NCBI GenBank assembly: GCA_030390025.1
Contig: JASTWF010000323.1
Coordinates: 310,001-374,000, forward strand
Reading direction: 5' to 3'
Length of the DNA: 64,000 nt
Origin: Squalus acanthias
Lineage: Eukaryota
Position 1 is the first letter of the stretch; every line of letters begins with the position of its first letter. The notes beneath the pieces were generated by a model that was not told where the DNA came from, searched no databases, and worked only from the letters and a program-made list of their open reading frames with translations. Of the stretch, positions 32,101 through 63,951 are shown one piece after another. A program made the translations under genes and the position numbers.

Positions 32101-32103
32101 AAA

Positions 32104-36305: not shown

Positions 36306-37207
36306 TCATCCTTTAATGAATTTTACAATTAAAGTAAAGGGATATTTCACCACATTTATCCACTGCTGTCTGAACCTAGTCTGTGTCACAGCAGAAATGC
36401 AAGTGTTTGTGCAGCAACTCAGGAGCTGGAGCACTTGTCCCAAATCTGACAAATATATAGGTAGAGATACAAAATAATCAACCAATCGCCACATCCGGTT
36501 ATATATAGAATACACCATAAGCACTGACCATAACAGGATGAAATTGCACGAAAGAGCAAACAGTAAAATGATGGATTTCCTTCGGAACTCCATCTCTGGG
36601 TCTCTGGGTCTCTCCCCACTGCTGGGACCCCGGAGTCTCCTGCGGGCTCTGCTGGCCACTAAAATGTGTCTGACGGTGACAGCATTGAGCAGCAGAATCA
36701 GAACAAATGCTACTCCCGGTGTGAGAATATAATGAAGGAACTCAATTGCTCCCCAGACCGGTGAAAACTGAACATCTAATGTTACTTCACAAAACCAGGG
36801 GACGTTCGCTAGTCCATATTCACCTGTTAACATAAAATACCAGAAAACGTTCTTTAAACAGCTCAGCACAGTCACTGTTCCTAGAACCACAGCCGCCGTT
36901 TTCTTGGTGCAATATTTTGTTTTCAGCTTCAGGCAACAGATGGCCACAAAGCGATCAAAAGTGAAAGTGACAGTGAACCAGACAGAACAGTCTGTGACTG
37001 CATAAAGCAGGACGGCGTTGATATTACAGACAGGGATAGAATACAGAGGAGCAAGCGGTTTCTTAGAAGACATCGGAATTAACCTTAATATCAGATCGAT
37101 GATAACGACCAGTAGATCCGCCGCTGCCATGGCCACCAGGTAGCGAGTGACACATGTGGAGAGACCGCACTTTCCCAGAGACAGGATCACAATGGTCACT
37201 AAGTTAA
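36306..37207 (-). CDS. GPR139/GPR142-like class A GPCR, exon 2 (end of TM1 to C-terminus)
   Basis: Acceptor CTGTTTCTTTTCCTTCCGCACAG|TT AAC. Open frame NLVTIVILS..YLVAMAAADLL..PVCNI..SVWFTVTFTFDRFVAIC..PWFC..LLSCCTNTCIS..FRQQ to stop; hydrophobic segments fit a 7TM protein. Confidence 0.93.
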
Positions 37208-37509
37208 CTGTGCGGAAGGAAAAGAAACAGGGACGTTTTACATCAGGCTGGCAGCAAAGGCAGCAGTTTGATGGAATTTGAGGTGAAATCGGCAACCAAT
37301 TACCGACATTCATTGATATAATGTAATTATATTACCTTTAAGCTGTGATTCTTTATTGTAAGAATAATTAATCAATAAATGAAGTTAGAATAAATGCATG
37401 AAATAACAGATGTTTGCTCATTGAGAGATGAAATGATAGATCTACATTTAGCCCAGCATATAAGAAGCTCCAGCTGAGGTACCAGGGATACAAAGAATCA
37501 GAACATCTC

Positions 37510-40040
37510 AGGAATAGTTTGGTATAAGCAGATGAGCAAATTTCAGAAAGGTAGTGAATGTATTGAGTGTGTCCGGGATCGTGATCTGGAACAATAGGTT
37601 CTGTAACCAACAAGGGGCATGTCATGTTAGATTTAGTAATGAGTAATGTACCAGATTTACTGAAAAGCCTAACAGTGTGGAACATTTTTCTAATAGTGAT
37701 CGTAACATGATCAAGTTCAATGAAGAGAAACGCGAAACCGTTACAGAGATTATGGGGTAGAAATTAGGTCGCGCCCCATTTGGGTCGCAAATATCGTCCG
37801 GACGCAAATATTAGCGTCTGGCGCTAATTATCGGCACTGACAGGAAACTTCACTTTTACCGCCCCGGGAGGTGAGTGGAGCGCGAAAGCAGGCGCTGCAC
37901 ACCTCTCTTAAGGCGCAAAGGCCAAGGAGTGAGGCGGTAACTCGGAGCGCTGGCGAAGCTCATGTAATGTCAGTCAGCAATGGAACACACACACAATGGC
38001 ACGGGCCAGTTCTTAAACGGGATGGTTAATCTTGCTTTCCATCCACATTCTGTTCATTGCTGCCTTGAATCTCGGCCTGGAGAGACTTGCACATCAAATG
38101 TGCTGGAAAGAACAATGGAGAGTACCAGGCAAAGAGCTCAGAGTGCAGCTCCCACAGTCTCTGCTACATCGATACAAGGAATGGGAAATCAAAATGAACC
38201 TGTAAAGTGCTGCTCAGTACCCAAAACTCCTTCACACAACGTTGAATCTCTCCAGAAGTCTCTCCCTCTCTCTCTCAGAATGCGTAGTTCAAAAATGCCA
38301 CCAACAATAAAAGACAGGAAGAGGCCCCCTTTAAATAGCGCCCCCCCAGCCCCACAGCGATTGATAGCGTTCCAGTCTTCTGGTCGTTGGAAGCGCCAGG
38401 CGGTAAGGCAGGGGGCGCCACTCAATTTCCGCTACGGGGCGCCACAAGGGCGTTGCACCATGGAATGACGTCACAATCTGCGCGCGCAGATGGTCGCAGC
38501 GGTAAGTTTTAGCGCCGCCGCACAATCTCAAGTTAAGTTCTCGAGCGGCGCAAACATCGCTGCGCCCGGGCGTTAGCGGCTTTGCGCCCCATTAGCGCCC
38601 TCTTAAGGCACTAACGGGAGGCGCAACCAAGTGAATTTTTACCCCTATATGTTTAGGTAAGGCCGACTTCAACGGGATGAGGGAGAGACTGTCCACAGGA
38701 AACTGAGCAAACCTGTTAATGGGTAATACAACAAACAATCAGTGGGGATGTTCAAAAAATAATTGCAGCTGATACAGAACCAGTTTATACCCCTGAGGGG
38801 CAAGAGGTATATTTGTCAAAAACAGCCCTGGACGGCAAAAGAGGTAAGGAACAGTATGGAAATAAAGGACAAAGCTTACAGAAATGCAAAATGTAGCACA
38901 GATCCTGGCGAATGGGAGAGATACAAAGAACAGCAAAGGGTCACGAAACAGATATTAAGAGCCACAAAAGGGAGTATGAAAAGGAACTTCTGAGGGATAT
39001 TAAAATCAACACAAATAAATTTTACAATTATATTATGAAATAGGGTAGTCAGGATTAATGCTGAACCGTTAAAAACTTAAAGCGGTGATATTGTCAATGA
39101 TAATAAGGAAATGGCGGACAGGTTGAAAGCAGACTTAGTGTCAGTATTTACAGTAGAGGAAGAAGCATGCCGGAAATCACAAGGAAACTAATATTGTATC
39201 AGAGGCAGGGAATCAATAGAATGAATGTCAATAAATAAACAGTTATAAATCAAATAATGACTCCAAAGAGTGACACGTTCCCAGGACCAGATAGTCCCTC
39301 AATTATTCACAGTTTTTATTAACGACGTAGATGAAGGCATAGAAAGTCATATATACAAATTTGCGGATGACACTAAGTTAGGCAGCAATGTAGGCGGTAT
39401 AGATGAAAGCATGAAATTACAAAGGGATATCGATACACTAAGTGAATCGGCAAAAATGTGGCAAACGGATTTTATCGAAGGCAAATGTGAGGTTTTCCAA
39501 TTTGTACATAAAAAGGATTGAACAGGATACTTTCTAAATGGTGAAAAGCTAAAAAGCGTGGCGGTCCAAAGAGACAGGGGTGCATCTATATAGATCATTA
39601 AAAATGTCATCGACAGGTACAGAAAATAATCAAAAACGCTGATAGAATGCTGGACGTTAGATCTAAAGCACGATACACAAGGGGGTAGACGTTATGCTGC
39701 AGCTATAGAAAGCCCTGGTTAGATCAAACCTGATGTAATGTGAGCATTTCTGGGCACCACACCTTAGGAAGGATATATTGGACTGGAAGGAAGTGCAGTG
39801 TAGGTTTTACCTGAATGACACCCGGACTCCAAAGGTTAAGTTATTGGCTGAAATTACACAAATTAGGATTGAATTTGTTAGAATTTAGAAGGTTAGGGGG
39901 TGATCTGATCGGAGTTTTCAAGATGAACAGATTGGTAGTTAGGCAGAGACTATTTCCCCTTGATGAGGATTCTAAGTCGCAGATCAGCCGTAATCTCATT
40001 AAACGGCTTAACAGGCTTGAGGGGTTAAATGGGTTGCTCC
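37510..40040 (+). mobile_element. Old decayed CR1 in the GPCR intron, interrupted by a MITE
   Basis: [27 protein letters not shown] (ORF 39270-39521), LEFRRLGGDLI; the APE remnant continues across 37754-38645. Confidence 0.75.
37754..38645. mobile_element. Second PIF/Harbinger-like MITE family (892 bp)
   Basis: TIRs GGGGTAGAAATT / AATTTTTACCCC (one mismatch), 3-bp TSD TAT (37751-37753, 38646-38648), CpG-rich subterminal GCGCC repeats. Confidence 0.8.
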
Positions 40041-41034
40041 TCTTCCTCTGTTCCTATGTTATTATACTTTCACAAAACATCGTGTCCCGGGATCAGTCAG
40101 CATTTTGAGCGGTGCAGTTCGCTTCTGTGCCTTTTGTTCGAGATTTGGAAATCTCGCTTGGATTCCTGATCTGGGTTTGAACTTCCTTTATATATAGAAC
40201 AGTAAATGAATGCCAACGCAACATACAGAATCTGCAACCTTGGCGTGCAATAATTACAGGCAATTGTATTTAAAATGTACAGATGTAAAATGACAATGTT
40301 AAGATAACTATCAGAGAACTGCAGTTATATAGACAACTAGGATGTCAGACGTGCTTTGAAGATTGAGTTCCCGCATTTTTCTTGAAATACACAAATTGTA
40401 GCTCATTGAAAGGAAGTTTTTTCCAAATAACATTGCAAAGAATGGACTCTGAATTATAATAAATAGTTGTCAGTGACAGCAAATGCCTCAATAAATATAT
40501 TTATCAAAATCGAATCCAGCCGAATTATCCAACAGGCAAAGTGCTTCCGAACGCTTTTCTAAAGTATCTGAACAGAAATGGAAGAGAATAATCCATGTAC
40601 TTTTCAGATGTTGGTTTCCAACTTTGTGCAGAGAATATTAGAGGAGAAAATAGCAAAGGATTGTCTGAACCACAGCTGGGATTGTTTATCCTGAAGTACA
40701 GCAGGAGGCAATAGAGACCCACTCTGGGTCGCACTGAGAGATCCACTGAACTGTGCCAGACGGGTATGTGACTCAATTGTAAATTCAAAACACAGAATGC
40801 AAATAACTGTATTGCAACCTGGCTGAATGTGCATTTTACGAGAATGCAAGTTATCCTTGTAATCCTATTCCAAACATCACAAGCAGTGCCTCTGAACCAA
40901 AACTGGAGATGGTAGAAAAGGATACAGTAACTTGAAATGAATGATTAGCGGATATTTCACAAATTTAAAGATATCTATATGACCGGTCAGGATTTTCTTC
41001 GTGTGAATCTGTTTAAATCACGATGCCGAGCATT

Positions 41035-41180
41035 AGAAGAAAACAAAAACAAAATAATGTGGATGCTGGAAATCTGAAATGAAAGCAGAAAATGCTGTAA
41101 ATACTCAGCAGATGATGCAGCATCTATAGAGAGAGAGAAACAGAGTTAACTTTGCAGGTCGATGACATTTGCCTTTAGGT
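41035..41180 (-). mobile_element. Short Penelope family A pLTR remnant
   Basis: GATGCTGGAAATCTGAAAT..CTCAGCAG..GCAGCATC..GAGTTAAC matches 1165-1270; hammerhead broken. Confidence 0.75.
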
Positions 41181-41454
41181 GAAAATTCTCCTGAACCAAG
41201 AAAACATTTTTCTGATCTGTTAGAAATGTTCATTGTGGAGGCAGATGGAAATTCGTTAAATAAAGAGTGTGGGTCCAATATCTTTGCTTGAAATGAACAT
41301 GGAATATTACAATCTTGGTAACAGCGTATCACGTTCAGATTCAGTAGCGTACAGCGGCGCGGAAAGCATGGGGAATGACAAAGAATATGTGAAGAAGGAG
41401 ATAAATACAGTTAAGCGTTATTTACATTATTAGAAGCTGGATACAGAGAATTAC

Positions 41455-41527
41455 CAGCGACACCAACAGCAACGAGGGCGGACGGGGTGGGGGAGGAAAT
41501 TACAAGAACAGTAAATCTGTTAAACAT
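41455..41527 (-). other. Candidate alternative or relic first exon of the GPCR
   Basis: ATG at 41527 opens MFNRFTVLVISSPTPSALVAVGVA G|GTAATT. Its 3' end resembles exon 1 and the phase-1 donor joins exon 2 in frame. Confidence 0.4.
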
Positions 41528-41785
41528 AATTTACAGAATTAATTATTTGATACATAGTCTTATAAGGAGCACCAACTGTAGCGAGGCTGTTCGAGTATTT
41601 TTATACAACAACTCATGCATTAACTACGATAAAAAGAAAGAAAGGTTTGCATTTATACGACTTAGATGATGCAACAAATGCAAACACAGAAAATCATTCA
41701 TAAATAAAATGCCACTGCAAATAGCCAGAATAATATTGCAGAGGAAGACAGTTTATGAAACGCATAACTGGTCATTGATACTTAC

Positions 41786-41915
41786 TCGGAACACCAACAA
41801 CAGCGAGGATGGGATAGTAAATCTTTCGTATTTGATTAAGTAAGGTATCTATCCGCATATCTTCACGCCAATTATCAGGAAGGGGCGGGGGAGGGGGCAC
41901 AAACATGCCTTCCAT
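41786..41915 (-). CDS. GPR139/GPR142-like GPCR, exon 1 (N-terminus and TM1)
   Basis: Strong Kozak AGAATGG at 41915; MEGMFVPPPPPLPDNWREDMRIDTLLNQIRKIYYPILAVVGVP then A|GTAAGT donor (phase 1). A+TT gives Ile and the junction YYPILAVVGVPINLVTIVILS; 343 aa in total. Confidence 0.9.
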
Positions 41916-41990
41916 TCTGAGAGTCGCTGGTGGTATTTGTGCTGGAGGCAAAGCGCTGACTGTGTGAGGTGACACATTGAATGGAGCTCC

Positions 41991-42090
41991 TTATTTATAG
42001 CAGAGAGAAATCCCTGAGTGACATCATTAGGCCTCAAAGTAAATGGCGTTAATTACAGTCATTGAACAAACAGACTCATGGACCCAATGT
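41991..42090 (-). promoter_or_regulatory. Core promoter of the GPCR gene
   Basis: TATAAATAA at 41999-41991, about 76 nt before the ATG. Upstream: TCCCTGAG (42011-42018), TGACATCA (42019-42026), TAATGA (42024-42029, minus), TAATTA (42050-42055), CCAAT (42084-42088). Confidence 0.6.
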
Positions 42091-42384
42091 CATCACAGCG
42101 CTTTATTGCAACACATTCTAGCTAAGCATATTGTACACAGTTTTAAATTAAAAGTGAGTGACTGCGGAATATTTCACCCGACCATAAAATACCGAGATAG
42201 AACAAAGAGAATGGAGTTTCTCTTCCTGTATTGAACACAACCTGAGAACAAAAGACGTGAAAGTCACAGAAACCAGGTTGAATAAAAGAAGAATGAAGGC
42301 TGGATTGCCCCAATCTTGTTATCTGATTTATTCAAACCCAGACCACCAGGGTAAAAAAAGTCACCATCAATAAATATTCCTAAA

Positions 42385-43160
42385 CGGCAGGATTTATTGC
42401 CCATACCTAATTGTCCTTGAGAACGTGGTGGTGATCCGCCTTATTGAACCGCTGCAGTCAGTGTCGTGTAAGTACTCCCACAGTGCTGTTAGGAAGGGAG
42501 TTCCAGGATTTTTACCCATCGACAATGAAGGAACGGCAATATATTTCCAATTCAGGATGGTGTTGAGAGGAACTTAGATCTGATGGTGTTTCCATGAGCC
42601 TGCTGCCCTAGTCATTCTAGGTGGTAGAGTTCGTGTGTTACAGATGTGCTGTTGAAGAAGACTTGGCGAGTTGCTGCAGTGCATCTTGTAGAGGGTACAC
42701 TCTGCAGCCACGGTACGCCGGTGGTGGAGTGAGTGATAATTTAAGATGATGGATAGTGTGCCAATCAAGCAGGTTGCTTTGTCGTGGATGGTTCGAGCTT
42801 ATTGAGTGCTGTTGGCGCTGCACTCATCCAGGCAGGGGCAGTGTATTCCATCACAATCATTACTTGTGCCCTGTCGATGGCGAAAGGCTCTGGGGAGTCA
42901 AGAGGTGAGTCACTCGCCGCAGAATACCCAGTCTCTGACCTGTTCTTGCAGCCATAGTAATTATGTTGCTTGTCCAGTTGTGTTTCTGGTCAATGGTGAC
43001 ATCCAGGATTTTGATGTTGGGGAATCGGCGATGGTAATGCTGTTGAATGTCTAGGGGCGTTTGTTAGACTCACTATTTTTGGTGAAAATCATTGCCTGGC
43101 ACATGTGTGGCTCAAATGTAACGTGTCACTTATCAGCCCAAGTCTGAATCTCGTCCAGAT
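42385..43160 (-). mobile_element. CR1/Jockey-group LINE 3' fragment
   Basis: SLHHRRTVAAECTLYKMHC remnant; homologous to 44325-45140. Confidence 0.8.
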
Positions 43161-46100
43161 TGCACTGTTCCCGCCTCAGTCCAGAAATTCCATCCGAAGT
43201 CTGTCTAGATTACACTGCTCCAGCCTCAGTCCAGGAATTCCATTCCCAGGTCTGTCCACATTGCACTGCTCCAGCCTCAGTCCAGGAATTCCATTCCCAG
43301 GTCTGTCCAGATTGCACTGCTCCCGCCTCAGTCCAGGAATTCCATTCCGAGGTCTGTCTGCATTAAACTGCTCCGGCCTCAATCCAGTAATGTCATTCCA
43401 GGTGCATCCTATATTGCTTTGCTCCCGCCACAGAACATGAATTTATTTCCCAGGACAGCCTAGATTTGACTGCTCCCGCGTCAATCCATTTATTCCATGC
43501 CAACAACTTCCTACATTATTCTGCTGCCGTCTCAGTGCAATAATTATCGTTCCTAGGGCCGCCTAGATTACACTCCTGCCGCCTCAGTCCAGTAATGACA
43601 TTCCCAGTGCCTCCTGCATTACACTGATCCTCCGTCAGCTCATGGATTTTATTCCCAGTGCCGCCTTGATTTCACTGCTCCATCCGCAGTTCAGGCAATT
43701 AAATCCCTGAGCCGTCTGGGGAACACTGCTCTCGCCTTTGTCCAGGAATTTTAATACCAAACTACCAAGATTTGCTGCTCGTACCGCAGTTCAGGAATTA
43801 CGTTCCCAGGGCAGTCTAGATTACACTGCTCCCGCCTCAGATAACGAAATTCATTCCCAGGGCCTCCAAGATTAAACTGCTGATGCCTCTGTAGAGATAT
43901 TTCATTCGCAGGTCCGCCTGAATTACAATATCCCTCCCACAGTCCAGGAATTTAAATTACTTGTCCATGCAGATTGCACTAGTCTCGCCTCATTCGAATC
44001 ATAGTGTCGGATAGATTACATTAATCGTCCCTTAATCCTGGAATTAGATTCCCTGGAAGGCTAGATTTCCACTCCCCCGCCTCAATCCGGAATTTTCATT
44101 GCCAGGGATGCCATATTACACTGTTCTATCTGAGTTCAGAAATTGTCTTCTCTGGGCCACCTACTTTGCATTTTTCCCGTATCTTTCCAGGAACATCATT
44201 CCGTAGGCCCAGTGGGTAAAACTGCTGCCGCGTCAATCGAAGAATTTCAGTCCCAGGAAAGCGTAGATCACACTACGCCCGCGTCAATCAGCGAATTGCA
44301 ATCCCAGGTTCACTAAGATTTTGTTTTATTTGTTCATGGTATATGGACGTCGCTGACACGGCCAGTATTTATTGCCCATCCCTAAATTCCCTGGAGAAGG
44401 TGGCGGTGAGCCGCCTTCTTGAACTACTGCAGTCCGTGTGGTGAACATTCTCCCCCAATGTTTTTAGAGAGTGAGTTCCAGGATTTTGACCCAGCGGCGA
44501 TGACGGAACGGCGATATTTTTCCAAGTAAGGAAGTTGTGTGACTTGGAGGGGAACTTGCATGTGATGGTGCACCCATGAGCCTACTGCTCTTGTCCTTCT
44601 AGGTGGAATTGGTCGAAGATTTGTGATTTACTGTGGAAGAAGCCTTGGCAAGTTATTGAAATACATCTTGTTGATGAAAGACACTGCAGTCAGAGTGCGC
44701 CGGTGGTGGAGGGAAGGAATGTTTAAGATGTTGAATGGGGTGCCAATCAAGCTGGCTGCTTTGTCCTGGATGGTGTCGAGCTTCTTGAGTTTTGTTGGAA
44801 TTGCACTCATCAAGGAAAATGTGGAATTTTCCATCATACACATGACTTGTGCCTTGCAGATGCTGAAAAGGGTTTGGGGAGTCAGGAGGTGAGACAGTCC
44901 CCGCAGTATATCCAGCCTCTTACCGCTGTTGTAGCCACAGTATTTATATGGCTGGTCCAGTAAAATTTCTGGTAAATGGTGAACGACCCAGGATGTTGAT
45001 GGTGTGGGATTCAACGATGGGAATTCCGTTGAATGTCAAGTTGCGGTGGTTAGACGCTCTCTTGTTGTTGATAGCCTTTGCCTGGCACTTGTGTGGTGCG
45101 AATGTTACTTGCTATTTATCAGCCCAGACCTGAATATCCTGTTGATTACACCGCTCCTGCCTCAGTCCAGGAATTCCATTCCTTGGTACGCCTTAATTAC
45201 ACTGATCCCGCCTCTGTCCGGGAGCATAATTCCCTCGGCCGCCTGGTTAAATCTGCTCCTGTTTCAATCCAAGAATTTAATTCCGAGAGCTGCCTACATT
45301 ATAATGCTCCTCCCTGAGTTCAGAAATTTCATTCCCAGGCAGCCTTGAATTCACTGCTCCTACCCAAGTTCAGGAATTTCATTCCCAGGGCTGCCTCGAA
45401 TACACTGCTACTGCTTCAATCCAAGAATTTCATCCCCAGGACAGCCTAAATTGCACTGTTCCAAAATCAGTCTAGGAATTTCATGCCTAGGGCAGCCTAA
45501 ATTGCACTGTTCCCGCCTCAATCCAGTAATTTAATTCCCAGGGCCTCCCAACTTAAACAGCTCCCTTCTTATTTCAGATATTTTATTAACAGGGCCACAT
45601 ACTTTTCGCTGCTCCTGCTTTCGACAAATAATTTAATTCTCAGGTTCAGCAAGATTGCAATGGCCGCGCCTCATTTCAGGAATTTCTTGACCAGTGCCAC
45701 CTCCATTTAACTTCTCCTCCCTCAGTCTAGGAATTTCAATCCCAGCTAAGCCTAGATTGCATTGTTGACGCCTCAGTTCAGGAAAGGAATTCCTAGACCA
45801 ACTAGATTACACTGCTCCCGCCTCAGTTCTGTAATTTCATTTCTTGGGCTGCCTAGATTACATTCCTCCCGCCGCAATCCTCGATTTACATTGCCAAGGT
45901 CAACAAGTTTGCAGCGCTCCCACCTCAGTCAAGGAACTCCATTCGCAGCGAAGCCGACATTGCACCGCTCCCGCCTCAGTACAAGTGTTTCCTTCCAGGG
46001 AGGCCTAGATTCGAGTCCTCCCGCCTCAGTCCACGAATTCCATTCCCAGCGCCGCATACATACACTGCTTCTCCCTCAGTCCAGGAATTTCATACCCAGG

Positions 46101-47405
46101 GACAACTCGATTACCCTGCTCCCCCCTCAGCTCATTAACTTCGAAGCTGGGGAACCCTAGATTACGCTGCTCCCATTTCAATCCAGAAAATTCAATCCTA
46201 GGTCCGTATTGATTACACTGTTCCCGCCTCAGCTCAGGAATTTCATACCCAGGTATACCTAATTTACCCTGCGCACAACTAAACCCAAAAAATCTATTCC
46301 CAGATCCTACGAGATTACACTGCTCCAGCCTCAATACAGCAAGTTAATTCCCAGGACAGGCTAGATTAGAATGGTCCGACCTCAGTCCAGGTATTTCATT
46401 CCCTGGTCCGCCTAGATTACCTTGCTTCAGCCTCAGTCCAGGAATTGCAATCTGAGGACCACGTGGATTACACTGCTCCTGCCTCCGCCAGCAATTTAAT
46501 TCCCAGGCTCACCTGAATTACACTGCTCCCACCTCAGCTCAGGAATTTAATTCCTAGTGCTTTCTAGATTACACTGCTTCCACATCAATACAGGAATGTA
46601 ATTTCAGTGTAGTCTAGATGACACTGCTCCCGCCTCAAATCAGGAATTTAATTCCTAGTGCTTCCTAGATTACACTGCGCCCACCTCAATACAGGAATGT
46701 AATTTCAGGGTGGTCTAGTTTACACTGCTCCCGCCTCATTCCTGGACTTTCATTCCATGGACGGCCTATTTTTCACTGCTCGCGCCTCAGTCCAGGAATA
46801 CCATTCACAGGGCCATCTAGATTACATTGCTTCTCCCTCACTCCAGCAATTTAATTTCCAGTGCACAGTAGATTACAATGCTCCCGTCTCAGTCCAGGAA
46901 TTTCACTTCCTGGACGCCCAGATTTCACTGCTCCCGCCTCATTTCATTAATTTCATTCCAACGGCCGCCTAGATTACATTGCTCCCAGCTCAATCCTGGA
47001 ATTCCATTCCGAGGCTCACGTAGATTACACTGCTCCCCCCTCATTCCAGGTTTTTTCTTCATGTGATGCCTAGATTAAACTGAACCCGTATCGGTACAGA
47101 ATTTCCAATCCATGGATTGCCTACGTCTGTGAATTTAATTGCCAGGGTAGACTAGATTACACTGCTCCCGCCTCCGTCTGTGAATTTAATTGCCAGGGTA
47201 GCCTAGTTTACACTGCTCCTCCCCCCCCCGCCTGTAAATTTCATTGCCAGGGATGCCTAGTTAACACTGCTCCCGCATCAGTCTGAGAATTTCATTGCCA
47301 GGGATGCCGGAAGTACACTGCTCCTATCTGAGTCCAGGAATTTCATTTTCTCGTCCAGCTAGATTACACTGCTTCAGCGACAATCCAGGAATTGCATTCC
47401 CGGGG
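43155..47405. repeat. 51-bp satellite (TAGATTACACTGCTCCCGCCTCAGTCCAGGAATTTCATTCCCAGGGCCGCC), interrupted by a LINE
   Basis: 51-bp spacing (43201, 43252) and 17-aa periodicity in the track ORFs; units are quite diverged. Confidence 0.92.
44325..45140 (-). mobile_element. CR1/Jockey-group LINE 3' fragment
   Basis: ORF 44628-45014: KRLDILRGLSHLLTPQTL..KAQV..KKLDTIQDKAASLI..LHHRR. Confidence 0.82.
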
Positions 47406-47599
47406 CTGAAAAGATTAAGGGTGATGGAAAGTCTGAAAATTCAGTCGAGATTCCCAGCCTTCTCTCAAATTACACTTCAGAACAGCTGTGACTGTCTCTC
47501 AACATTTTCAACATTCCCCGTTCCATTCTACATCCCTTTAGTTCATGCTTACAACTCACACATTTTAGCTTCCACGGCTGCCCATTCCGACAGAAACTT

Positions 47600-48575: not shown

Positions 48576-48579
48576 TGTC

Positions 48580-51564: not shown

Positions 51565-54500
51565 AGAAGTATTGTTGAGGGAGATGGCTTATCGGGGGAA
51601 TGCAGCAAAAACAAACTTCCTGGCACCATGGGTGGTTCTGTTGCATAGGAAGGGAGGAAAAAGAGCGGGAAAGCTATAGTGATAGGGGATTCTATTGTAA
51701 GGGGAATAGATAGGCGTTTCTGCGGCCGCAAACGAGACTCCAGGATGGTATGTTTCCTCACTGGTGCAAGGTTAAAGGATGTCTCGGAGCGGCTGCAGGG
51801 CATTCTGGAGGTGGAGAGTGAACAGCCAGTTGTCGTGGTGCATAAATCTATCAAGGATATAGCTAAAAAACGGGATGAGGTCCTAAAAGCTGAATATAGG
51901 GAGTTAGGAGGTAAATTTAGATATAGGAACTCAAAGGTAGTAATCTCAGGATTGCTACCGGTGCCACGTTCGAGTCAGAGTAGAAATTGAAGGATATTTC
52001 AGATGAATACGTGGCTAGAGGAATGGTGCAAGGGGGAGGGATTCAAATTGCTGGGACATTGGAACCCGTCCTGGGGAGGGGGGACCAGTAGAAACTGGAT
52101 GGTTTGCACCTGGGCAGGACTAAGACTGATGTCCTAGGGGGAGTGTATGCAAGGGCTGTTGGGGAGTGTTGAATCTAATGTGTCTTAATGCTAGGAGCAT
52201 TAGTAATAAGGTGGATGAATTAGCTGCGCAAATAGATGTAAAGGATATGAAATAATTGGGATTACGGAGACATGGATCCAGGATGACCAAATCTGGGAAT
52301 TCAACATCCAGGGGTATTCAATATTCAGGAATGACAGACAAAAAGGAAAAGGAGGTGGAGTATCATTGCTGGTTAAAGTGGAGTTTAACACAATAGCAAG
52401 GAAGGACATTAGCTCTGATGATGTGGAATTTCTATGGGTAGAGCTGAGCAATACCCAGGGCAGAAAATGTTAGTGGGAGTTGTATACAGACCCTCAAATA
52501 GTTATGCTGTAGTTGGGTATGGCACTAAACGGGAAATTAGAGAAGCGTGCAAAAAGGGCACAGCAGTTATCATGGGTGACATTAATCTACATATAGATTT
52601 GGCTAACCAAATTAGTAATAATACTGTGGGGATGGAATTCCTACAGCGTATACCGGATGGTTTCCTGGACCACTATGTCGAGGAACCAACTAGAAGTCAG
52701 GCCATCTCAGACTGGGTATTATGTAATGAGAAAGGATTAATTAGCAACCTTGCTGTGCGAGGCCCCTTGGGGAGGAGCGATCATAATATGATATAATCCT
52801 TTATTAAGATGGAGAATTAAGTAGTTGAATCAGAGACTAGGGTCCTGAATTTAAGTAAAGGAAACTACGATGGTATGAGGCTCGATTTGGCTAGGATGGA
52901 ATGGGGAGCTATACTTAAAGGGTTGACGGTGGATAGGCAATGGCAAACATTTAAAGATCGCATGGATGAACTACAGAATTTGTTCATCCCTGTTTGGCAT
53001 AAAAATTAATCAATAAAAGATGACTCAACCGTGGCTAACAAGGGAAATTAGGGATAGCATAGGATCCAAGGAGAGGGCATAAAAAATGCCCAGAAAAAGC
53101 AGCAAACCTGAGGATTGGGAGCAGTTTAGGATTCAGCAAAGGGGAACAATCGATTAATTAAGAGCGGGAAAATAGAATATCAGAGTAAGCTTGCAGTGAT
53201 CATAAAAACTGACTGTAAAAGCTTCTATAGATAAGTGAAGAGAAAATGAAAGGTGAGTCAAGCGTATGTCCCTTGCAGTCAGAATCAGGGGAATTTATAA
53301 TGGGGAACAAAAGAAATGGCTGACGAACTAAATACATACTTTGGTTCTGTCTTCACAAGGGAGTACACAACTAAACTCCCAGAGATGTCGGGGAACATAG
53401 GTTCTAATGAGAGGGAGGAATTGAATGAAATCAGTATTTGTAGGGAAATGGTGTTCGGGAAAATGTCGGGATTGAAGGCCGATAAATCTCAAGGGCCTGA
53501 TAATATTCATCCTAGGGTACTTAAGGAAGTGGCCCTAGAAATAGTACATGCATTGCTTGTCATCTTTCAAAATTCTTTCGACTCTGGAACAGTTCCCATG
53601 GATTGGAAGTTTGCTAATGTAACCCCACTATTTAAAAAAGGTGGTAGCGAAAAAACGGGGCATTTTAGACCGGTAAGCCTGACATCGGAATTGGGCGAAA
53701 TGCTAGAGTCGATTATGAAAGATGTAATTGCAGAGCACTTGGAAAACAGTGACAGGATCGGACAAGGTCAACATGGATTTACAAAAGGGAAATCCTGCCT
53801 GACGAATCTACTGGAATTTTTTGAGGATGTAACTGGTAGGATAGATAAGGGAGAAACACTGGATGTGGTGTATTTGGACTTTCATAATGCTTTCGATAAG
53901 GTCCCGCATAGGAGATTAGCGTGCAAAGTTAAATCACATGGGATTGTGGGTGAGGAACTGATTTGGACAGAGAACTCGTTTCCAGACAGATAGCAAACAG
54001 TTGGAATAAACGTGTCTTTTTCCGAGTGGCAGGCAGTGACTAGTGGGCTACCACAGGGATCGGTGCTAGGATCCCAGCTATTCACAATATATATTAATGA
54101 TCTAGACGAGGGAACGAGATGTATTATCTCTAAGTTTGCTGACGACACAAAGCTAGATGGAACGGGAACAATGTCCTAGAGGGAGTGTTTGCTAGTGCTC
54201 TGGGGGAGGGTTTAAACTAAAATGGCAGGGAGTTGTTAACCTGAGCAGCGAGACAGAGGAAAGGGAAACAAGGATAAAAGCAAAAGAAAGGAAGGATTAA
54301 AAGGAAAGTGGCCATCAGAGAAATCAACGGTTTAAATCAAACATGGCCACAGTAAATAATAATTCTAATAGTTCTAAGAGTGTTAAAAAAACAAGCCTGA
54401 AGGCTTTGTGTCTTAATGCGAGGAGCATTCGTAATAAGTTGGATGAATTAGCTGCGCAAATAGAGGTAAACGATTTGATTGGGATTACAGAAGCATGGCT

Positions 54501-57500
54501 CCAGGGTGGCCAAGGCTGGGAACTCAACATCCAGGAGCATTCAATATTCAGGAAAGATAGGCAAAAAGGAAAGGGAGCTGGCGTAGCAATGCTGGTTAAA
54601 GAGGGGATTAACACAATTGTAAAGGAAGGATATTAGCTCTGATGATGTGGAATCTGTATGGGTAGTACTGAGAAATACCAAGGTACAGAAAACGTTAGTG
54701 CGAGTGGTACATAGACCTCCAAACAGTAATGCGGAGGTTCGGAATGGCATTAAAAGGGAAATTAGAGAAGCGTGCAAAAAGGGGACAGCAGTCATCATGG
54801 GTTGCTTTAATCTACATATAGATTGGGCTAACCAAATTAGTAATAATACTGTGGAGGAGGAATTCCTGGAGCGTTTACGGGATGGTTTCCTGGACCAATA
54901 TGTCGAGGAACCAACCAGAGAGCAGGCCATCTTAGACTGGGTATTATGTAATGAGAAAGGATTATTTAGCAATCTTGTTGTGCGAGGCCCCTTGGGTCGG
55001 AGCGATCATAATACGATAGAATTCTTCATTAAGATGGAGAGTGAAGTAGTTGACTCAGAGACTAGGGTCCTGAATTGAAATAAAGGTAACTACGATGGTA
55101 TGACGGGCGAGTTGGATAGGATTGATTGGGGAATGCCACTCAAAAGTTTGACGGTGGATAGGCAGTGGCAAACATTCAAAGACCGCATGGATCAACTACA
55201 GAATTTGTTCATCCCAGTTTGGCATAAGAATAAAGCAAAAATGGTGACTCAACTGTGGCTAACAATGGAAGTTAGGAATAGCATAAGATCCAAGAAGAGA
55301 ACACATATATTGGCCAGAAAAAGCAGTAAACCTGAAGATTGGGAGCAGTTTAGGATTCAACAAATGAGGACAAAGGGATTAATTAAGAAGGGGAAAATAG
55401 AATATGAGAGGAAGCTTGCCGGGAACATAAAAACTGACTGTAAAAGCTTTTATAGATATGTGAAGAGAAAAAAGATTGGTGAAGTCAAGCGTAGGTCCCT
55501 TGCAGTCAGAATCAGGGGAACTTATAATGGGGAACAAAGAAATGGCAGACAAATTAAATACATATTTTGGTTCTGTCTTCACAAAGGAGGACACACATAA
55601 CCTCCCAGAGATGTTGGGGAACATACGGTCTGATGAAAGGTAGGAACTGAAATAAATCAGTATTTGTAGGGAAATGGTGTTAGGGAAATTGGCGGGATTG
55701 AAGGCCGATAAATCCCCAGGGCCTGATAATCTACATCCAAGGGTACTTAAGGAAGTGGCCGTAGAAATTGTAGATGCATTGCTGATCATCTTCCAACATT
55801 CGATGGAATCTGGAACAATACCCATGGAATGGAGTGTAGCTAATATTACCCCAATATTCAAAAAAGTTGTTCGAGAGAAAACGGGGAATGACAGACCTGT
55901 AAGCCTGACATCGGTAGTGGGGTAAATGCTGGAGTCCATCATAAAAGATGTAATAGCAGAGCACTTGGAAAACAGTGACAGGTTCGGACAAAGTCAACAT
56001 GGATTTACAAAAGGTAATTCGTGCTTGACTAATATACTGGAATTTTTTGAGGATGTAACTGGTAAAATAGATAAGGGTGAACCAGTGGATGTGGTGTATT
56101 TGGACTTTCAAAAGGCTTTCGATAAGGTTCCGCATAAGAGATTAGCGTGTAAAGTTAAGGCACATGGGATTGAGGGCAAGGTATTGACTTGGATAGAGAA
56201 CTGGTTGGCAGACAGAAAGCAAAAAGTTGGAATAAACGGGTCTTTTTCCGAGTGGCAGGCAGTAACTAGTGGGGTACCGCAGGGATCGGTCCTTGGACCC
56301 CAGCTATTCAGAATATATATTAATGATCTAGACAAGGAAACTAGATGTAATGGCCCAGAAATTCGGCCGAATACGGGAGAGGACGCACTGTGTACTCACC
56401 CGTATTCGGTCCCGAAGTGCCAGTTTCCTGCATACACTGCGCATGCGCGGGAAACCGGCACTTCCGATATTGCGAAGGGGGCGGTTCCTAAGTGAAACGC
56501 GTGCGCACTGGAGGCTGTACGCACACAGCACACTTCGGTTTTTTTTTCAGGTTTGAACGCGAGGGTAAGTATTGGAAATTTTACACACGAAAAAAGAAGG
56601 CGTAAGACCCCCTTATAACAAGGTGAGTAGTTAATTAAGTATTATTTTAATTTTTTTTCAACAGGTTTATCTTTTTTGGTAGTCTTTAAAGAAAGGTAAG
56701 TTTATTTTTATAACTTTTAAAAAGAATTTAAATATTTCAAAAATTTAAATTTTTGTTTTAAATGTTTAAATTATTTATCTATAGTTATTTTATTAATGTG
56801 ATGTTTTTTTAAAGTTTAATTGAGGTTTAGCTGTTCTTTTGGGGTAAGTTGTATTCATAGTTTAGACAGATCTCTTCTTTCAAAACAATGAATGAAAGAT
56901 GGTGTGGTGCCATTGTCTCTAACAGGCCCACGTGATCCCAGAGGTCGTATCGAACTAACTGCGCCTCTGGGACACGCACACACTGCGTGCGACACCAGGG
57001 AGAGGCCCAGGAACTGAAGTTCGTGTGGGCCCGAAACATAAAGGCAGGCGCGGAGTGCGATATCGCGGGGGATCCTTGCCTCCTCGTCAACCATTGAAGT
57101 CCAATTTCTGGGCCAATATCTCCAAGTTTGCAGATAAGGGGTAAGCCATTTAGGACAGAAATGAGGAGGAATTTATTCACCCAGAGAGTGGTTAACCTAT
57201 GGAATTCTCCAGCACAGAAGGCAGTACAGGCCAATTCATTAAATAGATTCAGGAAGAAGTTGGATATATTTCTTAAGACAAAAGGGATCAAGGGATACTG
57301 GGAGAAAGCAGCGACAGGGTCCGGAATTTGGATGATCAGCCATGATCGCATTGAATGGCGGAGCAGGCTCGAGGGGCCGAATGGCCTACTCCAGCTCCTA
57401 TCTTCTATGTTTCTATGTTGCTATGTGTGCTGTGAGGTGGATGCAGAGAAACTCCAGTATGATTTGGACAGGTTGGGTGATTGGGCAGATGCATAGCAGA

Positions 57501-58090
57501 TGCAGTATAATGTGGATAAATGCGATGTTATCCACTTTAGTGGCAAGAACAGGAAGACAGATTATTATCTGAACGGCAAAAAATTGGCGAAAGGGGAAGT
57601 GCAAAGTGATCTGTTAGTCATTGTGCACCAGTCGCTGAAGGTAAGAATGCAGGTACAGAAGCCGGTTAAGACGGCAAATGGTATGTTGGCCTTCATAGCG
57701 AGAGGATTCGAGTACAGCAGCAAGGATATGATGCTGCAGTTGTACAAGGCCTTCCTGAGAAGGAAGGATGTTCCTGATGTCGGGAGACTCCAGAACCAGA
57801 GTTCACAGTCTGAGGATAAGGGGTAAGCCATTTAGGACTGAGCTGAGGAGGAATTTCTTCACCCAGAGAGTGGTGAACCTGTGGCATTCTCTACCACAGA
57901 AGGCAGTTGAGGCCAATTCATTAAATATATTCAAGAAGGAGATAGATATATTTCTTAAGGCTAAAGGGATATGGGGAGAAAGCAGGGACAGGGTTCGGAG
58001 TTTGGATGATCAGCCATGATCTCATTAAATGGCGGTGCATGCTCCAGGGGCCGAATGGCCTACTCCTGCTCTTATACTCTATGCTTCATG
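51565..58090 (+). mobile_element. Tandem and nested decayed CR1 copies of one subfamily (about 51565-54160, 54160-57130, 57133-57425, 57430-58090)
   Basis: ORF1 esterase IGDSIVRG; two successive ORF2 remnants ([40 protein letters not shown]); two 3' ends. Confidence 0.9.
56352..57114. mobile_element. PIF/Harbinger-like MITE, copy 2 (763 bp)
   Basis: TIRs GGCCCAGAAATT/AATTTCTGGGCC, TSD AAT (56349-56351, 57115-57117). Removing it restores the CR1 RT sequence AGATGTAATATCTCCAAGTTTGC. Confidence 0.9.
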
Positions 58091-58099
58091 CTTCTAAGT

Positions 58100-60520
58100 A
58101 GGCAATTCCGCCCCTCGAGCCTGCTCCGCCATTCAATAAGATCATGGCTGATCTTCTACCTCAATTCCACTTTCCAGTACTGTCCCCATATCCCTTGATT
58201 CCATTAATATCCAAAAATCTATCGATGTCTGTCTTGAATACACACAACTGAGTTAACACAGTCCTCTCGGTAGAAAATTCTAAGGATTCACCATCCTCTG
58301 AGTCAATAAATTTCTCCTCATCTCAGTCGTAAACGACCGATCTTTTATTCTCAGATTGTGACCACTGCTTCTAGGCTTCCCAGCCAGAGGGAAACATCCT
58401 TCCTCCATCTCACCTGCGAAGCCCTACAAGAATTGTGTATCTTCCAATGAGATCACCTCTCATTCTTCTAAACTCCAGAGAACATAGGCCTACTCTACTC
58501 GATCTCTCGTCATAGGAAATTCTCCCCGTTGCAGGAACCAATCTGGTGAACTGTCGTTGCTCCTCTCTATGGTAAGGAGACCAAAACTGTAAACAATACT
58601 CCAGGTGTGGAGGTGTAGGCTCACGTGAGCCCTATATAATTGCAGTAAGTCTACTTTACTCTTATATTCAAATCCTCTTGTGATAAATGCAAACATACCT
58701 TTTGCTTTCTTAATTGTTGCTGTACCTGCATGCTAACTTTCAGTGATTCGTGTACAAGGACACCCACATCACTCTGAACACCAACATTTCCAAATCTGTC
58801 ACCATTTAAAAATAATCTACTTTTCTATTTTTCCGACCAAAGTGGGTAGATTCACAATTCTCCACGTTATATTCCACTTGCCAGGATCTTGTCCAGTCAC
58901 TTCGCCTGTCTATATTCTCTTGAAGCCTCCTCACAACTTACATTCCCACCTAGCTATATATCAACAGCAAACTTGGTTAAATTACATTTGTTCCCCGCAT
59001 CCAAATAATTGATGTAGATTGTGAATAGCTGAGGCCCAAGCACTAATCTTGGGTTACTCCACTAGTTCCAGTCTGCCAACCCGAAAATGACCCGTTTATC
59101 CCTACTCTTTGTTTTCCATCCGTGAACCAATCCTCAAAATATGCAAGTATATTACCCCCAATCCCATGAGCCCTAATTTTGTTTAATAATCTCTTGTGTG
59201 GCACCTTATCGAATGCCTTCTGAAAATCCAAATACAACACATCCACTTGCTCTCCCTTAGCTATTCTGCGAGTTACAAACTGAAACAACACTAACAGATT
59301 CGTCAAACATGATTTCCCTTTCATAAATCCGTGTTGATTCTGCCCAATCCTATTATTATTTTCTAAGTTCCCTGTTACCAAGGAATTAATGATAGATTCT
59401 AACATTTCCCTCATGCCGATGTCAGTCTACCTGGTCTGTAGTTCCCATTTATCTCTCTTTCTCCTTTCTCAAATAGTTTGGTTACATTTGCTTCGTTTCA
59501 ATCCGTGGGAAACATTCTAGAAGCAATGGTGTTTTGGATGATGACTAACAATGCATTCACTATCTCTATATCCACTAGTTTCAAAACCCTAGGATGCAAG
59601 CCTTACGGTCCAGGGGATTTATCGGGTTTCAGTCCCATTAATTTCTCCCGGGCTATATTTTCACGAATGCGAATTTCTTTCAGTTCCTCATTCTTGCTAA
59701 GGCGTTGCTTTTCCTTTATAGAGGGGAGGTTTTTTGCGTATTCTTCCATGAAGACAGACACAGACTATTTGTTTAATTTCTCTGCCATTTCCATATTCCC
59801 CATTTTACTTTCGCCTGTCTCAGCCTATAAGGGACACGCATTTACTTTCGGTAATCTTTTCCCTATTTATATAACTATAGAAGCATTTACAGTCTGTTTT
59901 ATTTCTCTCGCTAGTTTACTCTCATATTCTAATTTATCTTTCTTTATCAATGTATTTGTCCTGCTTTGCTTAATTCTAATATACTCCTAATCCTCAGGCG
60001 CACTGCTCTTTTGACAACATTAGAAGCCTCTTCCTTTGAAATAATACTATTATTAACTTCTCTTGTTAGTCACGGTTGGAACACTTTTCCTGTGGGGTTT
60101 TTGTGCCTTCTTGAAATGTGCATTTGTTGTAAATTATGTATTTTTTTTAATGCTCGCCATTGCTTGTCTACCGTCATACCTTTTAATGTAGTTTCCCAAT
60201 CTACCTTAGCCAACTCGCCCCTCATACCTACGGAGTTTGATTAGTTTCGATTTTACACTCTAGTTTTGGATTCAACTTAATCACTTTCAAACTTAGTATA
60301 ACATTCTAACATATTATGGTCACTCTTCCCTCAGGGCCCCTATAATACAAATTATTGATTAACACTTTCTCCTTTCACGATACTAGATCTAAAGTTGGCT
60401 GATCCATAGTTGCTTCCTCAACATTCAGATCTGGAAACCTAGCTTTTAGACATTCCATGAATTCGTCCTCCACACTATTGCTGCAAATTTGGTTTGCCCA
60501 GTCTATATGTAGATTATGTC
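58100..60520 (-). mobile_element. Decayed CR1 ORF2
   Basis: [34 protein letters not shown] (ORF 59043-59414). Confidence 0.88.
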
Positions 60521-60529
60521 TGCAATTGT

Positions 60530-60680
60530 AAGTTACACATGCATTGTTCTCTATCTATATATGCTTTGACGATTTGTGTCTCCTCTCTTCACCCGACGAA
60601 GGAGTTGTAACTCCGAAAGCTTGTGATTTAAAATAAAACTGTTGGACTATAACCTGGTGTTGTGCGACCTCTCAATTTTT
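60530..60680 (+). mobile_element. Penelope family B pLTR remnant with a variant hammerhead
   Basis: Matches 18095-18245; TCAC-CCGACGA-A-GGAGTT-GT-AACTCC-GAAA-GC-TT-GTGA at 60589-60626. Confidence 0.8.
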
Positions 60681-60682
60681 TC

Positions 60683-62158
60683 CACATGGGAGGTGCCAGA
60701 GGACCGAAGAATAGCTAACGTAGTACCATTATTCAAGCAGGGTAGTTGGGATAAACCAGGGCATTACAGGCCAGGGAGCCTAACATCAGTGGTAGGGAAA
60801 TTATTGGAAACAATTCCGAGGGACAGAATTAGTCTCCACTTGGAGAGGCAAGGATTAATCAATGATAGTCAGCATGGCTTTTTCAGGGGGAGATCATGTG
60901 TGACCAAATTGATTGAATTTTTCGAGGGGTTGACTAGGTGTGTGGATGAGGGTAGTGCAGTTGATGTGGTCTACATGGACTTCAGTAACGCTTTTGACAA
61001 TGTCCCGCATGGGAGAGTGGTCAAGAAGGTAAGTGTCCATGGGATCCAGGGCAACTTGGCACATTAGATCCAAAATTGGCTTAGTGGCAGGAGGCAGAGG
61101 TTGATGGTCGAAGGTTGTTTTTGTGACTGGAAACCTGTGTCCAGTGGTATACCGCAGGGATCGGTGCTGGGTCCTTTGTTGTTTGTAGTGTACATTAATG
61201 ATTTAGATATGAATGTAGGAGGTAAGATCAGTAAGTTCGCAGATGACACGAACATTTCTGGCGTGGTAAATAGCGAGGAGGGAAGCCTCAGGATACAGGA
61301 CGATATAGACGGTTTGGTCAGATGGGCACAAAAGTGGCAAATGGAATTTAACACTGAAAATTGTGAGGTGATGCATTTTGGGAGGATTAACAAGGCAAGG
61401 GAATACACAATGAATGGTGGGACCCTAGGAAGGACTGTGTATCAGAGGGACCTTGGTGTGTATGTACATAGATCTCTGAAGGCAGCAGGACAGGTAGATA
61501 AGGTGGTTAAAAAGGCATAAGCGATACTTGCCTTCATTAGCCGAGGCATAGAATATAAGAATAGGGAGGTTATGATGGAGCTGTACAAAACGCTAGTTCG
61601 GCCACAGCTGGAATACTGTGTGCAGTTCTGGTCGCCACAATAAAGGAAGGATTTGATTCCATTGCAGATGGTGCAGAGGAGATTCACCAGGATGTTACCT
61701 GGGCTGGAGCGCTTTAGCTATGAAGAGAGACTGGAGACGCTGGGGTTGTTTTCCTCAGAGCAGGGAAGGCTGATGGGGGAACCTGATTGAGTTGTACAAA
61801 ATTATGAGGTGCATAGATAGGGTAGATAGAAAGGAATTTTTCCCCTTAGTAGAGGGGTCAATAACCAGGGGCCTAATTTCAAAGTAAGGGGCATGAGGTT
61901 TAGAGGGGATTTGAGGACAAACTTTTTCACCCAGAGTGTGGTTGGAATCTGGAACTCACTGCCTGAAAGGGTGGTAGAGGCAGGAACCCTCAAATCATTC
62001 AAGAAGCATTTAGATGAGAACTTGAAACGCCATAGCATACAAGCCTACGGACCAGGTGCTGGAAAATGGGATTAGAATAGACAGGGCTTGATGGCCGGCG
62101 CAGACACGATGGGCCGAAAGGCCTCTTTCTGTGCTGTATAACTCTATGACTCTATGAC
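60683..62158 (+). mobile_element. CR1 RT and 3' end
   Basis: [40 protein letters not shown]; (ACTCTATG)n tail. Confidence 0.9.
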
Positions 62159-62159
62159 A

Positions 62160-62710
62160 TCCTTAATCCTGAGACCAGGGAGGCAACATACGATCTTGGA
62201 TTCACATCTGCGGACGCAGAAACGCCTCTCTGCTCCCCTAACTCGAATCGCCTGACAGTATTACTATCCCTATCTTCCTCCTCCCCCCCTTATACAGCTG
62301 AGAGGCTCATGGTGCCGCGGACTTGGCTGTCTGTACTCCCTAGAGGAACCACCGCCCTCTCCAGCACTCTGAACAGAATACTGGTTGGAGAGCGAGATGC
62401 ACTCAGGCAACTCTTGCCCTACCTACCAGGTCCTCCTCTTCTGTCGGACCGCAACCCAATCCTTCTCTGCCTGTGCACTCCTTAGCTGCGGGGTGACTAT
62501 TCCTGAAACGTGCTATCCACGTAGCTCTCAACCTCGCGGGTGCACCGCAGTGACGCCGGTGGCTGCTCAAGCATTGGAACCTGGAGTGCGATCTCCGACA
62601 GCTGACGACACCAGCTGCACACGTGGCTGTCCAGGACACGGAAAGCGTCCTGGATTTCCCACATGGGACAGGATACACAATCCGTGGGATTGAGCTGCCT
62701 GCCATGCCTC
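62160..62710 (-). mobile_element. CR1 ORF1 5' fragment
   Basis: GGCAACATAC.ATC and CAGAAACGCCT blocks match the ORF1 esterase region of the other CR1 copies; ATG near 62705. Confidence 0.7.
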
Positions 62711-62769
62711 TATTTATTCGACTAATAACCAACTTTACAGAAATTTTAAACTAAGGATTATCTAATACA

Positions 62770-63460
62770 AGTTGTTAATCTAACATGTTATTAACAGTTA
62801 CTAATTTAATATCGTATTTACAATTATTAATATATTATTGTATTAACAGACACTAATTTAATGTTGTATTGACAGTTACTAATATAATATAGTATTAACA
62901 GTCACTAATTTACTGTAGTATTAACAGTTACTACTTTACTGTAATATTAACAGTTACTAATTTAATATAGTATTAACAGTTACTAATTTAATGTAGTATT
63001 AACAGTTACTGATTTAATGTGGTATTAACAGTTACTGATTTAATGTAGTATTAACAGTTACTGATTTAATGTGGTATTAACAGTTACTGATTTAATGTAG
63101 TATTAAAAGTTACTGATTTAATGTAGTATTAACAGTTACTGATTTAATGTGGTATTAACAGTTACTGATTTAATGTAGTGTTAACAGTTACTGATTTAAT
63201 GTAGTATTAACAGTTACTGATAAAATGTGGTAATAACAGTTACTGATTTAATGTAATATTAACAGTTACTCATTTAATATTATATTAACAGTCACTGATT
63301 TAATCTTGTATTAACGGTTACTAATTTAATGTAGTATTAACAGTTACTGATTTAATGTGGTATTAATAGTTACAGATTTAATGTACTATTAACAGTTACT
63401 AATTTAATATAGGATTAACAGTTGCAAATTTAATATAGTATTCAGAGTTGCTAATATCCA
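62770..63460. repeat. 26-bp AT-rich minisatellite (AACAGTTACTGATTTAATGTAGTATT)
   Basis: Direct tandem units with 26-bp spacing. Confidence 0.95.
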
Positions 63461-63616
63461 AGCTCCTGCCTTCACCCTAATCAGCTATTTAACCCCGGCC
63501 CCTAACTTGAAGAGCAGAAACACGGTGTGACCTTTACCAGTCAGTCAGTTCCCAGTCTTTCTGTCTGTTAATAAGAGCCATCAGTTCAGGGGCTGACTCT
63601 GTGATTGTTGTTCCAG

Positions 63617-63693
63617 TTCTGGTGGATGGGAGATTCCCGAGACTCAGGTTCCAGACTATCGCTGCTCCATAAAGCACCCAGGCCGGTTAAACG
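63617..63693 (+). CDS. Uromodulin/GP2/OIT3-like D8C domain, internal exon A
   Basis: GTTGTTCCAG|T TCT GGT..AAC G|GTAATT encodes SGGWEIPETQVPDYRCSIKHPGRLN, matching the D8C pattern GG..(M/I)PE..V....C.T..PGWLNG. Confidence 0.82.
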
Positions 63694-63786
63694 GTAATTT
63701 CAGACTTTATAATCTCAGATTTACATTCACTGTCCAGCACTGTTCACCACGGTTACAATATTCAATATTTACAAATGACGTTTCAG

Positions 63787-63951
63787 GTTCTCATCCCACC
63801 GTGGGACAGGGAGAAGTGACGAGGACAGTTTGTTTCAGCTGGGAAGTAAATCCCTGCCACGGAACCGTGGAGATAAAGATCAAAAACTGCACCAGTTACT
63901 TCGTTTATGAGTTGAAGCCGACACCCGGAATGAACTCTGCTTATTGCACAG
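63787..63951 (+). CDS. Uromodulin/GP2/OIT3-like D8C domain, internal exon B
   Basis: TTTCAG|GT TCT CAT..TGC ACA G|GTACAT encodes (G)SHPTVGQGEVTRTVCFSWEVNPCHGTVEIKIKNCTSYFVYELKPTPGMNSAYCT. Phase matches exon A across a 93-bp intron; typical HP...G.V.R.VC, I.VK.C..Y.VY.L and AYC motifs. Confidence 0.88.

Follow-up and report, generated by a model that had tools for sequence, protein, structure and literature searches.

An intact GPR139-like receptor copy and a headless D8C_UMOD fragment, most likely chance neighbours in a repeat-rich region of the Squalus acanthias genome

The best-described relative of the receptor considered here is human GPR139, an orphan class A G protein-coupled receptor (GPCR; PDB 7VUG, 9M42) that is activated by L-Trp and L-Phe. 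The accessible text of PMC7318219 places its gene on chromosome 16 and gives orthologue identities to the human protein of 96% (mouse), 92% (chicken) and 70% (zebrafish). F3x33, H5x43, W6x48 and N7x38 are the residues that matter for Trp/Phe activation in the part of PMC5430874 available. Human UMOD and GP2 carry a decoy module in which, according to the available sections of PMC8930769, a beta-hairpin packed on D10C is needed to hold the FimH-binding glycan. A 64,000-nucleotide (nt) stretch of Squalus acanthias DNA (contig JASTWF010000323.1, positions 310,001 to 374,000; the window) contains a GPR139-like receptor gene on its minus strand and exons of a D8C_UMOD domain on its plus strand. We take human GPR139, GP2 and UMOD to be adjacent on chromosome 16p, and a first, sequence-only reading of the window had seen in the two shark genes a possible ancient, co-amplified pair. 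The analysis points elsewhere: the window holds an intact two-exon receptor copy and a headless two-exon D8C piece, most likely members of independently multiplying families that have come to lie in the same repeat-rich region as chance neighbours, and neither a co-amplified nor an ancient pair.

Receptor ATG and first D8C exon lie 21,702 nt apart, in agreement with the ~21.7 kb originally given. The co-occurrence of the two families was examined in two other sharks, Heterodontus and Heptranchias, with annotated models only and with scaffolds told apart by length. No scaffold is shared between receptors and D8C-family models, either among the 58 receptor scaffolds of Heterodontus (5 D8C scaffolds, 6 models) or among the 16 of Heptranchias (3 D8C scaffolds, 4 models, including one stalk-named cluster member and a pair of isoforms from a single gene). 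A fixed cassette would put a D8C gene on most receptor scaffolds, including the chromosomes with 13-15 sampled receptors; none was seen there in this partial sample, and a cassette is therefore unsupported. What the window records would then be two birth-and-death families, independent of each other, that landed in one repeat-rich region.

The D8C side of the pair has no head. Exons B and C are separated by a 93-nt GT-AG intron, their frames are open, and they match Pfam D8C_UMOD at E 1.1e-7, so that plus-strand D8C exons are indeed present at the positions in Table 1. Exon A was not found on either strand of the window, where its profile scores at best 6.4 bits, inside a LINE (long interspersed nuclear element) reverse-transcriptase remnant; held-out true exons score at least 60 bits and shuffled windows up to 5.5, and true exons keep at least 14 bits when 30% of their positions are changed at random and at least 30 when cut to half length, although at 50% change some fall to 2 bits, so that a copy in extreme decay might go unnoticed. 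The weak exon-A match at 23446 was dismissed because it is LINE sequence. The leader exon was likewise not found in the window (best score 3.5 bits against at least 24 for true leaders). Exon A and the leader being absent from the window, no 5' end faces the receptor, and the divergent (head-to-head) arrangement first proposed is not confirmed. Within exon B, Arg replaces a Trp that is invariant in 95/95 modules, and Glu stands at a position that is Lys in 83 of the 95. An AT-rich 26-bp minisatellite lies directly 5' of the exons, where exon A is missing.

With the UMOD/GP2 decoy module, as far as the available text of PMC8930769 describes it, the window piece shares the D8C_UMOD domain sequence; it differs in having neither the hairpin-side first exon nor the leader. 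Because these are missing, the piece alone would be no secreted decoy module and, on comparison with the human proteins, could not form one of the UMOD/GP2 type. It contains two sequons, whose role in carrying a FimH-binding glycan is putative. Its relatives come from elasmobranchs; they carry 1-4 modules in tandem, and most end in a Ser/Thr/Glu/Pro-rich stalk. The ZP domain is listed in no shark D8C relative (the listings give PF23283 or nothing), and in 71 of 73 cases the tail is too short, or has too few Cys, to contain one. Shark D8C relatives with no listed ZP domain are therefore not UMOD/GP2 orthologues. Tandem modules and gene clustering are also found in another D8C family, the zebrafish omcin cluster, for which the accessible part of PMC11415648 reports no unrelated genes over ~400 kb. 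The window piece itself is probably a remnant, either dead or skipped.

The receptor, by comparison, is complete. The claim of an intact minus-strand GPR139-like GPCR is upheld by a two-exon class A gene that encodes 343 amino acids (aa) in a frame open throughout, with no internal stop, and that matches Pfam 7tm_1 at E 2.8e-12 (47.1 bits against a cutoff of 30.5). Exon 1 was located by tblastn with 120 relatives, which give 93 matches at that site; exon 2 is preceded by a pyrimidine tract and AG. The AlphaFold model of the exon-2 part is a seven-helix bundle (pLDDT 84, pTM 0.83) whose 49 listed Foldseek matches are all class A receptors, at E ~1e-5. Further class A marks are DRF, the cysteines of transmembrane helix (TM) 3 and extracellular loop 2 (Cys104 and Cys183), and Trp270 (Trp6.48). 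ESM Atlas matches are solely to 'probable GPR139' and generic 7tm_1 clusters. A second receptor copy was looked for within the window and not found; the unit that duplicates would comprise the promoter and both exons. A look at expression, which covered contigs from 4/16 runs at 80% likeness, speaks neither for nor against it: exon 2 is covered by 80-99% alike contigs from 3 runs guessed to be RNA, one of these three has no cover on exon 1 or on the unique parts of the intron, and no exon 1-exon 2 joint is among the 15 joints listed (there are 170 further ones).

Human GPR139 is the only PDB match of the single window sequence (29.9 bits, 20-21% identity), and a profile of 30 family sequences places it best of 451 PDB matches, at 82.6 bits against 60.4 for the next. 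(Foldseek ranks GPR139 18th; its ordering of class A relatives was set aside, as a uniform E of ~1e-5 has no ranking power.) The two share the class A fold and a two-exon gene. Judged by sequence, the window receptor nevertheless is not a GPR139 orthologue, because 29.9 bits and ~20% identity compare with 70-96% among true orthologues; human GPR139 is single-copy and conserved, whereas the elasmobranch family is multi-copy and variable. On this point the sequence-only reading was right, in that it saw a lineage-expanded paralogue rather than the strict orthologue: in a tree of 42 rows the window copy falls inside a 12-row shark-type clade with support 100/100. All 33 shark-type rows, 22 of them labelled by similarity and not by species, are united at 94/87.

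Sister to this shark family, at 97/93, is a salamander group, with a coelacanth/teleost group outside. These are the best named non-elasmobranch matches (salamander XP_069092602 group, E 8.5e-25; coelacanth XP_005988539/teleost KAM4562537 group, E 1.6e-23). The salamander gene is conserved in three genera (XP_069092602, XP_069461538, XP_078504422) under the name 'probable GPR139'. Against human GPR139 the salamander and coelacanth proteins score 53 and 70 bits, and they are not GPR139 orthologues. Two motifs of the shark family, the G[KR]..LS loop (in 3/3 salamander proteins) and D.EM..RR.S (in 2/3), recur in the salamander group and have no counterpart in the coelacanth group; both outside groups are seen as small conserved clusters, whereas the shark family is an expansion. 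Because salamander and coelacanth relatives exist, we infer that the founder of the family predates the split of sharks from bony fishes, in the jawed-vertebrate ancestor, and was separate from GPR139. The salamander relative of the shark family is what is new here. The coelacanth/teleost group (coelacanth, teleost and two UniRef entries), which is misnamed GPR139, carries Ser, not Trp, at position 6.48 in both members checked. The available portion of a review (PMC5207463) tabulates 'NMOGPR' and 'Orphan 139-like' beside GPR139/142, rows that may correspond to the salamander and coelacanth groups; the accessible text of PMC8514136 links GPR139/142 to the invertebrate MIP, proctolin, FMRFamide and myosuppressin receptors.

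The window receptor is a member of a very large elasmobranch GPR139-like expansion. Among 8000 candidates, 2298 clusters match at E<=0.001, a count that beyond the best 120 may include GPCRs from outside the family. All of the best 120 come from sharks or rays, and their identity is 50-76% (56 Heterodontus, 50 Heptranchias, 9 Pristiophorus, 5 others). Most of them are RefSeq/UniRef models at 67-76% identity (Heptranchias perlo, Heterodontus francisci, Pristiophorus japonicus and others) that bear the name 'probable G-protein coupled receptor 139' by automatic annotation only; they have their exon-2 start in common with the window copy. Like the window copy, 114/120 have the CGLS loop and 114/120 the motif DPEM..RRKS. 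Of the receptor motifs first cited, CGLS is thus shared by most of the 120, while NTCIS is peculiar to this copy (Tyr stands there in 119/120). Heterodontus has at least 94 family proteins on its 58 scaffolds (10 of them >20 Mb) and Heptranchias at least 80 on its 16; these counts combine the best 120 with 68 members from 10 clusters and omit 2 short entries of bacterial source as well as the Pristiophorus rows, which have no scaffold. Near-identical copies with close accession numbers lie on one chromosome, as tandem arrays would: 9/11 members of one cluster fall at XP_067857533-696. When the search was made exhaustive at 50% clustering, 148 representatives reached E<=1e-10. Ten of the 150 representatives listed were looked up: rays/sharks (three), the salamander group (Pleurodeles, Ambystoma, Lissotriton), coelacanth, teleost, two UniRef and two environmental entries; there is no chimaera entry among these named matches. 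In several RefSeq models of both families, LINE-derived or otherwise spurious N-termini replace the true first exon, and database N-termini are therefore unreliable for receptors and D8C proteins alike.

These facts bear unequally on the other ways in which the two genes might have come together. That they form a co-amplified head-to-head cassette, in which the receptor shares a regulatory interval with a secreted D8C decoy and the two serve as a mucosal sensing and defence module, has some points in its favour: they stand on opposite strands 21.7 kb apart, they are the sole two host-gene matches in the window, as originally reported (2 Pfam matches, 7tm_1 and D8C_UMOD, among 117 stop-to-stop frames of >=70 aa mostly outside repeats, a scan that might overlook small exons belonging to unknown genes), and both families are expanded in elasmobranchs. 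It is nonetheless highly improbable. The D8C piece lacks a 5' end in the window, satellite and LINE debris makes up the interval that would be regulatory, annotated clusters number 2298 for the receptor against 78 for D8C (from searches that differ in reach), and co-clustering of receptor copies with D8C models, as the cassette predicts, was found on 0/74 receptor scaffolds (0/58 and 0/16) in the partial sample from the two other sharks. The ancient, co-amplified cassette of the sequence-only reading is thus not sustained. A looser and older association, in which both founders lay near an ancestral GPR139 and UMOD/GP2-type locus and the families still share regions without a fixed cassette, would fit with GPR139 as the family's nearest solved relative and with a founder older than the shark/bony split, as the salamander and coelacanth relatives indicate. 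It is unlikely all the same: the models sampled from the two other sharks have no shared scaffolds, even with 14 scaffolds >20 Mb included, and each window gene is a distant paralogue of its human counterpart rather than an orthologue. Nor did the literature yield a paper joining GPR139, UMOD and synteny, in a search outside which most subscription papers lay.

A different doubt concerns only the D8C piece, which might be part of a functional multi-module gene extending beyond position 64000, or might have lost exon A in assembly, with the module skipped or tolerated. Both exons do have open frames and canonical splice sites, the last donor is 49 nt from the window end, and relatives have up to 4 tandem modules; set against this are 63.6 kb of upstream DNA with neither leader nor exon A, the W-to-R change at an invariant site, and a minisatellite and LINE stack at the place where exon A is expected, which together make a working gene very unlikely. 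The reading of chance neighbours has weak points of its own, all of which tell against it to some degree. The D8C evidence covers DNA up to position 64000, the window end. The co-clustering test is drawn from Heterodontus and Heptranchias, not from Squalus acanthias; the receptor sample in it is partial (the closest 120 and 68 cluster members); 8 D8C scaffolds enter it; and the D8C models were found by word seeds (78/80 candidates, 187-595 aa), a route that misses unannotated D8C exons near receptors. On the receptor side, BLASTP with the window sequence gives a coelacanth protein at 130 bits and a salamander protein at 128 (28-32% identity), the salamander branch in the tree is long (1.86), and the tree contains neither true GPR139 nor GPR142.

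Since the receptor is not a GPR139 orthologue and the D8C relatives are not UMOD/GP2 orthologues, the GPR139-GP2-UMOD neighbourhood on human 16p consists of different members of both families. The locus is then an ordinary one, one of very many receptor copies beside a broken fragment, and it cautions against projecting human synteny onto automatic gene names.

The family to which the receptor belongs may be of wider interest. In the 120 closest relatives, residues 91-100, 171-200 and 271-300, on the extracellular side, have a column entropy of 1.4-2.0 bits; in the core and on the cytoplasmic side, at 51-80, 111-140, 251-270 and 301-320, it is 0.2-0.6 bits. The GPR139 pocket positions, transferred through single-sequence and profile alignments to the human protein, are Tyr 3x33, His 5x43, Trp 6x48 and Gln 7x38 in the window copy. 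Compared with the human pocket, the subfamily keeps an aromatic residue at 3x33 (114/120), His at 5x43 (113/120) and Trp at 6x48 (120/120); Asn at 7x38 is not kept, and Phe stands there in 105/120. Across 48 diverse representatives the four positions vary widely except at Trp 6x48. The conserved cytoplasmic face and cores, set against variable loops and pocket, therefore suggest many ligands with common signalling: the varied extracellular loops and pocket would confer different ligand preferences and the conserved cytoplasmic face a shared G-protein output, and the class A GPCRs of this family likely make up a sensory repertoire.

We put forward, as a tentative idea somewhat less probable than its negation, that sharks and rays possess an undescribed sensory repertoire of hundreds to more than 1000 GPCRs, grown from one ancient GPR139-related gene that is conserved in salamanders, with a pocket diversified for amino-acid-like, peptide or microbial ligands. 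For the catshark, the accessible part of PMC11979771 reports only 2 canonical odorant receptor (OR) genes, 6 that are OR-like, and ORA, TAAR and TARL sets of very small size. Given such small sets, at least 80-94 variable-pocket GPCRs per shark are an obvious candidate for the missing sensory or immune-sensing capacity. If real, the repertoire would overturn the view of sharks and rays as poor in chemoreceptors, and the salamander gene would be a route to the ancestral ligand. No description of the elasmobranch receptor family, or of its pairing with D8C genes, was found in the literature searched, which left most subscription papers outside.

The copy in the window is not a typical representative. 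Tyr7.53 and Pro5.50 are activation switches of class A GPCRs; the window receptor has Ser315 in place of the former (Tyr in 119/120 closest relatives, Ser in 0/120) and Ala210 in place of the latter (Pro in 115/120). Its Gln at 7x38 occurs in 0/120 relatives. Altogether it departs from 12/159 conserved columns, where the median is 5 and 12 is reached by 7/120 relatives. With both switches replaced, weak signalling is predicted, and the copy may therefore be at an early stage of decay.

Table 1. Coordinates of the receptor gene, the D8C exons and the repeats around them in the window
Feature	Position	Strand	Basis
Receptor exon 2 (TM1 to stop)	36306..37207	-	Pfam 7tm_1; conservation; 7-helix model
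Receptor intron, 4,578 nt, with repeat insertions	37208..41785	-	GT-AG ends; high repeat depth
Receptor exon 1 coding sequence, 130 nt (N-terminus and start of TM1), phase-1 donor	41786..41915	-	tblastn
Putative TATA box of receptor gene, ~84 nt 5' of ATG	41994..41999	-	read from sequence; function inferred
25/26-bp (51-bp dimer) satellite arrays 5' of receptor promoter	43153..43488 and 45145..47347		Tandem Repeats Finder
Degraded LINE fragment stack between the two genes	48682..62242		tblastn
AT-rich 26-bp minisatellite, 25.7 copies, 5' of D8C exons	62789..63455		repeat scan
D8C module exon B (second of three)	63617..63693	+	sequence; module alignment
D8C module exon C (third of three); its phase-1 donor is 49 nt from the window end	63787..63951	+	Pfam D8C_UMOD; hidden Markov model, 85 bits

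The setting of both genes is repetitive (Table 1). Matches to the window's own retroelement proteins, or tandem arrays, cover 52% of the window, and 40% of the interval 42000-63616 is matched by those retroelement proteins in tblastn. Upstream of the receptor TATA box, at a distance of 1.2-5 kb, are the 25/26-bp satellite arrays. A 27-bp satellite occupies 18862-22045 with 116 copies; a shorter array in inverted orientation, ~68% alike, is found at 35449-35716, 600 bp downstream of the receptor stop. This satellite yields long Pro-rich false open frames. An open LINE reverse-transcriptase frame of 819 aa, presumably CR1-like, extends over 11871-14327, and a related copy near 29500-32700 together with the open frame suggests recent activity. 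At 15011-17523 two reverse-transcriptase frames of one family, which we take to be Penelope-like or LINE-type, stand back to back on opposite strands and meet near 16414-16507. Arrays of a 67-bp repeat, presumably one that is common in shark genomes, are found at 9592-11506, 18288-18662 and 34581-35257.

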